Assembly (NCBI GenBank): GCA_000002445.1
Contig: CP000070.1
Span: forward strand, 1,888,001 to 1,952,000
Reading direction: 5' to 3'
DNA: 64,000 bases
Source: Trypanosoma brucei
Taxonomy: Eukaryota
This document shows positions 4,296 to 4,676 of this stretch, piece by piece. The notes below the pieces were generated by a model. It had not been told where the DNA came from. It saw nothing but the letters and a program-made list of their open reading frames with translations, and ran no database searches. The stretch's first letter is position 1. Each line of letters starts with the position of its first letter. The position numbers and the translations under genes are program-made.

Positions 4296-4676
4296 GTTAA
4301 TCCCAACGGAAGTGTTTCGCTCCTCCACAAGGCCGTAGTTTTACCGATTCGTGAAGTGCGCTCGGAAGGTAACGGAGAAAAACAAACTCGGAGGCTGAAA
4401 AACCAGTCATGTTATATAGAAGACGTCGTTCAAGGCTCGACTCTCCTCAGGACAAAGGGAGTTGGCGGACATTGAATATGGCCGCACACCTGCATTTGCA
4501 TTGGTAGTCACTCAAACGCCACACCTTTTCTAAAAAGCTTCATTGGCGCTGCACCTGTTCACTTTTGTTGCCTAGCGTAAATGGATAATGCAATGTTAAC
4601 ATCGCTGAGCCGTTGGCTCTCAACCTCCTTCTGAATGCGACAGTAGCGACTGATGGTGCGATAATGGAGGTGGTGT
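4296..4676 (+). repeat. Copy of a dispersed ~385-bp repeat element forming the palindrome core (unique 344 bp plus the 37-bp inner end of the right arm)
   Basis: The same 385 bp recurs in reverse orientation at 21289-21677 at near identity. A diverged partial copy lies at 45955-46150. Confidence 0.6.

Follow-up and report, generated by a model that had tools for sequence, protein, structure and literature searches.

Background

Why do the arms of a long palindrome within a chromosome remain identical, and what is the sequence enclosed between them? Both questions are raised by an inverted repeat on chromosome 7 of Trypanosoma brucei. Seven long inverted repeats of this organism were described by Tschudi et al. 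(2012, BMC Genomics 13:427, PMC3447711). One of them, designated Tb927_07_IR4 (IR4 below), is listed in that paper with a repeat length of 2,520 bp, 100% identity, and verification by PCR in strain YTat1.1. Tschudi et al. themselves raised the question of why the arms remain identical (PMC3447711).

We analyzed a stretch of 64,000 nucleotides (64 kb) of T. brucei TREU927 chromosome 7, called the window in this text; all positions are positions in the window unless a contig is named. The original prediction for this DNA placed a dispersed repeat of ~385 bp at the centre of the palindrome and regarded it as a short interspersed element with short inverted termini, acting as a recombination or fold-back substrate. 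The present work is aimed at the nature of this repeat, its age relative to the palindrome, and the origin of the identity between its copies and between the palindrome arms.

The palindrome and its surroundings

Self-BLAST of the window reveals a perfect inverted repeat with arms 1776-4295 and 4640-7159, both of 2,520 bp and with 0 mismatches. It consists of the following parts:

1776..4295, plus strand: left, gene-proximal arm, with tRNA-Ala 2510-2583(-), tRNA-Ser 2652-2734(-), and tRNA-Asp 2810-2881(+)
4296..4639, no strand: spacer (loop) of Tb927_07_IR4, the 344-bp gap between the perfect arms
4640..7159, minus strand: right arm, mirror of the left one, with tRNA-Asp 6054-6125(-), tRNA-Ser 6201-6283(+), and tRNA-Ala 6352-6425(+)

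This palindrome is the published siRNA locus Tb927_07_IR4: it is on the same chromosome 7 and has the same length of 2,520 bp and the same identity of 100%. We are therefore dealing with the same object, and what had been called the palindrome core, 4296-4676, is the IR4 spacer as far as 4639; the remaining 37 bp (4640-4676) belong to the right arm. Each arm contains three tRNA genes detected by ARAGORN/Rfam, namely Ala-AGC, Ser-GCT, and Asp-GTC. Six tRNA genes (Ala, Ser, and Asp, two each; 2510-2881 and 6054-6425) thereby sit inside the siRNA locus.

The locus lies near the centromeric array and the rDNA of TREU927 chromosome 7. The 337-aa ORF at 189-1202(-) has 100% identity to a conserved hypothetical protein of T. 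brucei brucei TREU927 and only 58% to the T. cruzi orthologue. Five further ORFs of the window matched TREU927 chromosome 7 proteins exactly: a 427-aa putative trans-sialidase, CEP44, a 771-aa trans-sialidase, an ESAG5-like protein, and Tb927.7.6870. Every annotated gene from 0.2 to 31 kb is carried by the minus strand. A eukaryotic SSU rRNA gene occupies 63181-64000(+) (5' part, cut by the window end; Rfam RF01960, 450 bits). An AT-rich tandem array with 29% GC and strong GC skew spans 49030-52104, where TRF finds periods of 59 and 89 bp that are made up of ~30-bp units (~52 copies, 89% match). Centromeric arrays of ~30-bp repeats on chromosomes 2 and 7 adjoin rRNA genes (PMC1868937), and the array in the window fits this published centromeric repeat. 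The counterpart array of T. b. gambiense DAL972 is at least 7.8 kb long, with gaps.

Several other features of the region deserve description. A direct duplication of 1,603 bp (8098-9700 and 29800-31402, 99.8% identity) identifies the 427-aa trans-sialidase as a truncated copy of the 771-aa one. The T. equiperdum OVI assembly has one full-length 764-aa trans-sialidase gene beside CEP44, which might be due to recombination of the two copies or to their collapse in the assembly. At 47349-47552 there is an ORF beginning MLLSGDVEENPGP, a 2A-like peptide typical of retroposons of the ingi/L1Tc type. A fragment of ~230 bp just upstream of it (47125-47355) is repeated in inverted orientation at 57560-57787 with 91% identity, and the homology of DAL972 to the window stops beside this fragment, at 47367. 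TREU927 has a 60-N assembly gap at 37144-37203, where DAL972 and T. b. equiperdum are continuous with ~10 bp of overlap.

Copies and anatomy of the repeat

The sequence at the centre of IR4 has two other copies in the window:

4291..4676, plus strand: copy 1, truncated at its left end; it starts with the innermost 5 bp of the left arm, spans the whole spacer (344 bp), and ends 37 bp into the right arm
21290..21684, minus strand: copy 2, the most complete one (~395 bp), inverted relative to copy 1 and 16.6 kb away from it
45954..46150, minus strand: copy 3, an old partial copy with only the first ~175-195 bp of the element, ~85% identity

In the self-BLAST of the window copy 1 is the reverse complement of 21290-21675 over 386 bp with 100% identity (E=0). 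The segments 4291-4458 and 21508-21681 match 45972-46149(-) with 84.8-85.0% identity over 172-178 bp, and nhmmer widened copy 3 to 45954-46150. The original prediction had located the copies at 4296-4676, 21289-21677, and 45955-46150; self-BLAST agrees with it within a few bases, gives identities of 100% and ~85%, and bears out two full copies in opposite orientation with one partial copy. A fourth copy was not found in the whole 64 kb by nhmmer and blastn (word size 7). The known copies are all confined to a 42-kb part of a single pericentromeric region, and 0 copies occur in ~23 kb of Trypanozoon DNA beyond the range homologous to the window. The latter observation argues against a very abundant family, as far as this sample of sequence goes, and would be compatible with tens of copies. 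A full-text literature search with 19-22-mers of the element yielded no match.

Both full copies are close to tRNA genes. Copy 1 is 1.4 kb from tRNA-Asp, and a solitary tRNA-Lys (CTT) gene, 22941-23014(+), is 1.27 kb from copy 2. This closeness may be a coincidence; the sequences in between are unrelated.

An alignment of the three copies with their flanks defines the limits of the element. From ACTGT (4291) through ...GGTGGTGT (4676) copy 1 does not differ from copy 2, and outside these limits the two are unrelated; copy 3 breaks off after ~180-195 bp. To the left of ACTG copies 2 and 3 have ~8 extra bases in common, CTTTC(C)TC, which copy 1 does not have. Since these bases occur only in copies 2 and 3, the left end of the element can be placed at ~21682-21684 of copy 2, and it is this end that copy 1 has lost. 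At the other side copy 2 runs unbroken across the equivalent of the boundary between spacer and right arm (4639|4640), for 37 bp up to 4676. The three-copy alignment, with copy 1 cut on the left and copy 2 continuous on the right, thus marks 4295|4296 as a novel junction within the element and 4639|4640 as native element sequence.

Copy 1 therefore supplies the IR4 loop and, in each arm, the 37 bp next to it. In the right arm these 37 bp (4640-4676) continue the element without a break; in the left arm (4259-4295) they match the right end of the element in reverse complement. The innermost 5 bp of the palindrome arms form an inverted microhomology, in which ACTGT at 4291-4295 pairs with ACAGT at 4640-4644. 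The element is older than the present inner junction, which cuts it at this 5-bp inverted microhomology.

The same two words had been proposed as short inverted termini, ACTGT...ACAGT. The sequences do exist, but they are not termini. They are the ends of the arms and lie inside the element: ~8 bp of the element precede ACTGT in copies 2 and 3, and the element continues for 32 bp beyond ACAGT. Their frequency is that of chance, as the element contains 20 inverted 5-bp pairs at least 200 bp apart versus 19.1 +/- 5.9 in shuffled sequences.

The locus in related trypanosomes

We reached other assemblies through the protein-cluster members of the window proteins. Chromosome 7 of T. b. gambiense DAL972 is collinear with 1-22246 of the window at 98.3-98.5% identity; it has the palindrome as well as copies 1 and 2 in the same positions, and the spacer 4296-4639 is present with 97.7% identity. 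A second DAL972 scaffold contains the region of copy 2 and also copy 3, the latter as the same truncated fragment of ~177 bp. The region FN554974.1 2196203-2230849, on a 4.53-Mb scaffold of DAL972, is homologous to 18652-47367 of the window, and on the DAL972 chromosome 7 scaffold window position 22246 is followed by a gap of 100 N. DAL972 thus contains two assemblies of the 18.6-22.2 kb stretch, copy 2 included, with 1 difference between their elements; either one of them is misplaced or they represent two haplotypes.

Contigs of T. equiperdum OVI contain the outer left junction of the palindrome and the junction between element and arm. The OVI element has 0 differences from TREU927, its sequence being one merged path through the repeat and itself a collapsed state. 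On CZPT02000287.1 (reverse complement of 19266-20525) the right flank of copy 2 is followed by the element, 1 kb of palindrome arm, 10 N (20270-20279), and finally the genuine left flank of copy 2. Such a junction would be expected after an inversion between copies 1 and 2, but an ambiguous path through the 386-bp repeat is the more likely cause. The assembly of T. b. equiperdum IVM-t1 has a scaffold gap at the expected site of copy 2.

Two T. cruzi strains have a single tRNA cluster, Ala(+)-Ser(+)-Asp(-), which lies 0.7-1.1 kb upstream of the orthologous gene and is collinear with the left arm. Because of this collinearity we regard the left arm as having the ancestral position and orientation. 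Neither a palindrome nor an element-like sequence was found in 42 kb of T. cruzi DNA from the two strains. The syntenic contig of T. congolense has no tRNA, and its homology is limited to the gene.

Concerted evolution of the copies and the arms

We compared five sequences over 386 bp: copies 1 and 2 of TREU927, copy 1 of DAL972, and the two DAL972 assemblies of copy 2. Of 11 columns that vary, 6 distinguish the two brucei copies from every gambiense copy, 0 distinguish locus 1 from locus 2, and each of the remaining ones is private to one gambiense copy. Four sites could be polarised with copy 3 as an outgroup; two are derived in brucei and two in gambiense, each in both paralogues.

The arms follow the same pattern. 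They differ from each other at 0/2,520 bp in TREU927 and at 2/2,522 bp in DAL972, and between the subspecies there are 50-52 mismatches and 26 gap columns. The brucei-gambiense divergence is 2.0% for the arms and 2.1-2.3% for the element; for single-copy flanks it is 0.56%, 0.71%, and 0.86%. Arms and element are thus 2.4-3.5 times as diverged as the adjacent single-copy DNA (Fisher tests against flanks: p = 2.7e-6 for the arms, p = 0.0085 for the element).

The collinearity of the flanks in the two genomes shows that the copies and the palindrome existed before brucei and gambiense separated. With a duplication of this age, the grouping of the variable sites by genome requires that the inverted copies underwent gene conversion in both lineages. 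The faster divergence of arms and element relative to the flanks means that the identity within a genome reflects homogenisation and not sequence conservation. Taken together, the substitution patterns show concerted evolution of the two copies and likewise of the two arms, which indicates recurrent gene conversion.

The 100% identity in TREU927 could in principle have come from assembly collapse, and the PCR from YTat1.1 (PMC3447711) bears on the presence of IR4 and not on the identity of copies 1 and 2. The copies of DAL972, however, are separately resolved, with 5-6 differences, and yet they group by genome. This is evidence of concerted evolution that is independent of TREU927.

Gene conversion from arm to arm is also characteristic of the palindromes of the human Y chromosome. 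As in those palindromes, paralogues within a genome (the arms, and copies 1 and 2) are closer to each other than to their orthologues in the sister taxon. The differences are the scale (0.39 kb and 2.5 kb), the presence of tRNA genes and not protein-coding genes, and the location of one conversion partner outside the palindrome.

Origin of the palindrome centre

In our view the sequence of 386-395 bp is probably a non-coding repeat of low copy number, local to the pericentromere of chromosome 7 and not a demonstrable mobile element, and it was probably cut by fold-back at a 5-bp microhomology. The formation of palindromes by fold-back primed from short inverted repeats occurs in yeast, in the rDNA palindrome of Tetrahymena, and in the inverted amplicons of Leishmania. 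IR4 resembles these cases, being a large perfect palindrome with a spacer bounded by a short inverted microhomology and with one novel inner boundary. Unlike them, it is chromosome-internal and stable across subspecies. Moreover, its novel junction is borne by the syntenic arm, so that a second step, namely remodelling of the centre, must be assumed.

In the fold-back itself, a 3' end ending in ...ACAGT (or the complement) would anneal to ACTGT 344 nt away and copy the opposite arm. In the history that we propose, the tRNA palindrome would have formed first. Repair of a later break in the spacer would have proceeded by fold-back synthesis that started on the side of the right arm, with re-annealing of the product to the homologous left arm. 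Both arms would thus have been extended by 37 bp into the element, and the left end of the element would have been deleted. This two-step history is the most economical one, its second step being putative, and we favour it because synteny with T. cruzi marks the proximal arm as ancestral. A one-step fold-back, in which the whole left arm is copied from the right arm, conflicts with this synteny and gave way to the two-step version.

The original prediction that the element served as a fold-back substrate was right in spirit, and the geometry of the junction fits it. The substrate proper is nevertheless an ordinary chance microhomology and not a feature of a transposon. One observation speaks against a merely local repeat: copies 2 and 3 have a discrete left boundary in common, as a defined element terminus would show.

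Is the repeat a mobile element?

The same boundary can be counted in favour of another explanation, according to which the repeat is a mobile unit similar to a SINE or a MITE, or a solo terminal repeat of a degenerate retroelement of the VIPER/DIRE type. Its copies would then be independent insertions, one of which seeded the palindrome. We consider this unlikely, even though three copies do lie in a retroelement-rich pericentromeric region together with the ingi-type 2A ORF (47349-47552) and the repeated fragment 47125-47355 / 57560-57787. The original prediction spoke of a short interspersed element; no hallmark of a mobile element was found for it among target-site duplications, an A-tail, A and B boxes, and VIPER-like domains in the neighbourhood.

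The element does not appear to encode a protein, in line with the original prediction. Its longest open frame has 66 codons without an ATG, and no relatives of this frame were found among 5.8 billion protein clusters. An ATG ORF of 121 aa over copy 3 gave no entry in an exact look-up in the protein collection.

Short non-coding repeats of the RIME/ingi kind are common near centromeres in T. brucei, and our repeat is likewise a short non-coding repeat of this species. It differs from RIME/ingi in three respects: an A-rich tail, a target-site duplication, and similarity to the ingi-related fragments of the window are all absent, and the element is dissimilar to the other retroelement fragments of the window as well. 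The right end, ...GGAGGTGGTGT, contains no A run. Target-site duplications at copy 2, for which the original prediction had suggested looking, were not found: the sole word shared by the flanks is a 6-mer located 22-23 bp from both ends, with a chance probability of ~0.15. A non-LTR retroposon of the RIME/ingi/NARTc type was rejected on these two grounds, the absence of a 3' A-rich tail and of a target-site duplication.

A tRNA-derived SINE or another Pol III gene was rejected too, as the element has no pair of A and B boxes on one strand with up to 2 mismatches, in a search in which four control tRNAs scored. ARAGORN and Rfam gave no match to the element at gathering scores or at E up to 10. 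The predicted fold is no more stable than that of shuffled sequences (z-scores +1.64 and +0.08 for the two strands). Together with the lack of an Rfam match, this led us to reject the idea of a structured RNA.

For a transposon with terminal inverted repeats, or a MITE, the sole candidate termini are ACTGT and ACAGT. These 5-bp words lie ~8 bp and 32 bp inside the ends, pairs like them occur at the chance level, and the target-site duplication is lacking; the class was therefore rejected. The 37-bp inverted end is the palindrome arm and occurs in copy 1 only. In addition, the transposable elements known from trypanosomatids are described as belonging to class I retrotransposon clades only (PMC12278014).

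Finally, we considered the SIRE/VIPER pair of T. cruzi. The 5' ~185 bp and the 3' ~220 bp of SIRE are the ends of VIPER (Vazquez et al. 1999/2000, as summarised in PMC6681497), and VIPER encodes Gag-like, tyrosine recombinase, and RT/RNase H proteins (PMC6681497). By these summarised descriptions our repeat is similar in its class of ~0.4 kb, its non-coding nature, and its location in a centromeric region rich in degenerate retroelements. The partial copy of ~180 bp (~175-195 bp) recalls the 185-bp 5' portion of VIPER in SIRE, a point for the mobile-element explanation. On the other side, the species is different, two T. cruzi loci contain no homologue, and the comparison is one by description. 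Copy 3 as the 5' end of a VIPER was examined in the orientation of the element: the 2.7 kb downstream of it (43231-46200, three frames) contain no Pfam domain, including RT, RNase H, or recombinase domains. A VIPER-like element starting at copy 3 is therefore not supported, and SIRE/VIPER was rejected with the host being T. brucei. The other family names suggested, C6 and E13 as well as NARTc with Pr77, fall with SIRE for the same reason: they are T. cruzi families. The 0 copies in ~23 kb of other Trypanozoon DNA are a further point against mobility.

A possible role in small RNA production

Retaining the local low-copy repeat as the preferred explanation, we can ask whether its inverted arrangement has a function. 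The element might act as RNA: reading of the loop and its twin in the same direction, on the minus strand, would give complementary 386-nt RNAs, which would form dsRNA and enter RNAi, and this pairing would be under selection. From 0.2 to 31 kb the annotated genes all have minus-strand orientation, so that one direction of transcription would yield copy 2 in sense and copy 1 in antisense. Identity between the copies is 100%. According to Tschudi et al., IR4 yields 55,854 reads of small RNAs bound to TbAGO1, and for the T. brucei inverted repeats the region between the arms is a source of small RNAs as well, from which the authors inferred transcription of both strands (PMC3447711).

A selected role of this kind nevertheless seems to us quite improbable. 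The IR4 reads depend little on either Dicer (71% and 103% of the wild type), which is atypical of siRNAs, and the small RNAs from between the arms are displayed in that paper for IR3 only (PMC3447711). Between the subspecies the element has diverged by 2.1-2.3% and the single-copy flanks by 0.6-0.9%, a difference that speaks against purifying selection on the sequence. For the identity of the copies gene conversion is a sufficient explanation, and the tRNA genes between them may interrupt transcription by Pol II.

The six tRNA genes of the arms might contribute fragments to the IR4 reads, and the near independence of these reads from Dicer might be partly due to such fragments. As a speculation, the inverted twin offers an alternative to transcription of both strands as the source of small RNAs from between the IR4 arms.

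A broader scheme can be put forward tentatively, and we give it a low probability. Small RNAs from the loop would come from a long-range or trans duplex of copies 1 and 2, with the partner located 16.6 kb upstream in the direction of transcription. The inverted pair and the arms would at the same time constitute a recombination module with frequent gene conversion and possibly with inversion of the 16.6-kb CEP44/trans-sialidase segment by the centromere of chromosome 7.

That the palindrome and its identical copies are artefacts of assembly or cloning is essentially refuted: collapsed or chimeric assemblies can produce perfect 2,520-bp arms and a 386-bp repeat, and the OVI scaffold does follow a hybrid path through the element, but IR4 was verified by PCR in the independent strain YTat1.1 (PMC3447711), the structure recurs in DAL972 with substitutions of its own and with 2 differences between the arms, and the OVI contigs contain the same junctions.

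Conclusions

The palindrome IR4 itself was already known (PMC3447711). Relative to the account given there, our analysis adds the sequence of the spacer, its inverted copy 16.6 kb away, the partial third copy, the six tRNA genes of the arms, and the microhomology at the inner junction. As far as we found, three points are new. The sequence of the IR4 loop recurs as an identical inverted twin and as an old partial copy; microhomology bounds the inner junction; and concerted evolution of the arms and of the copies goes together with a faster divergence than that of their flanks.

On the evidence, a local repeat of low copy number, kept uniform by gene conversion, is to be preferred to a new interspersed element. 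This removes a putative new transposon family and ties the element to a published and still unexplained class of long inverted repeats with AGO1-bound small RNAs. Current views of trypanosome biology remain unchanged, and the importance of the finding is modest. The microhomology-bounded junction within a repeat provides a concrete and testable origin for the centre of the palindrome, and the inverted twin of the loop provides a testable explanation for small RNAs from between the arms. For IR4, the comparison of brucei and gambiense answers the question of why the arms stay identical: the structure is old, homogenised by gene conversion, and evolves faster than its flanks.
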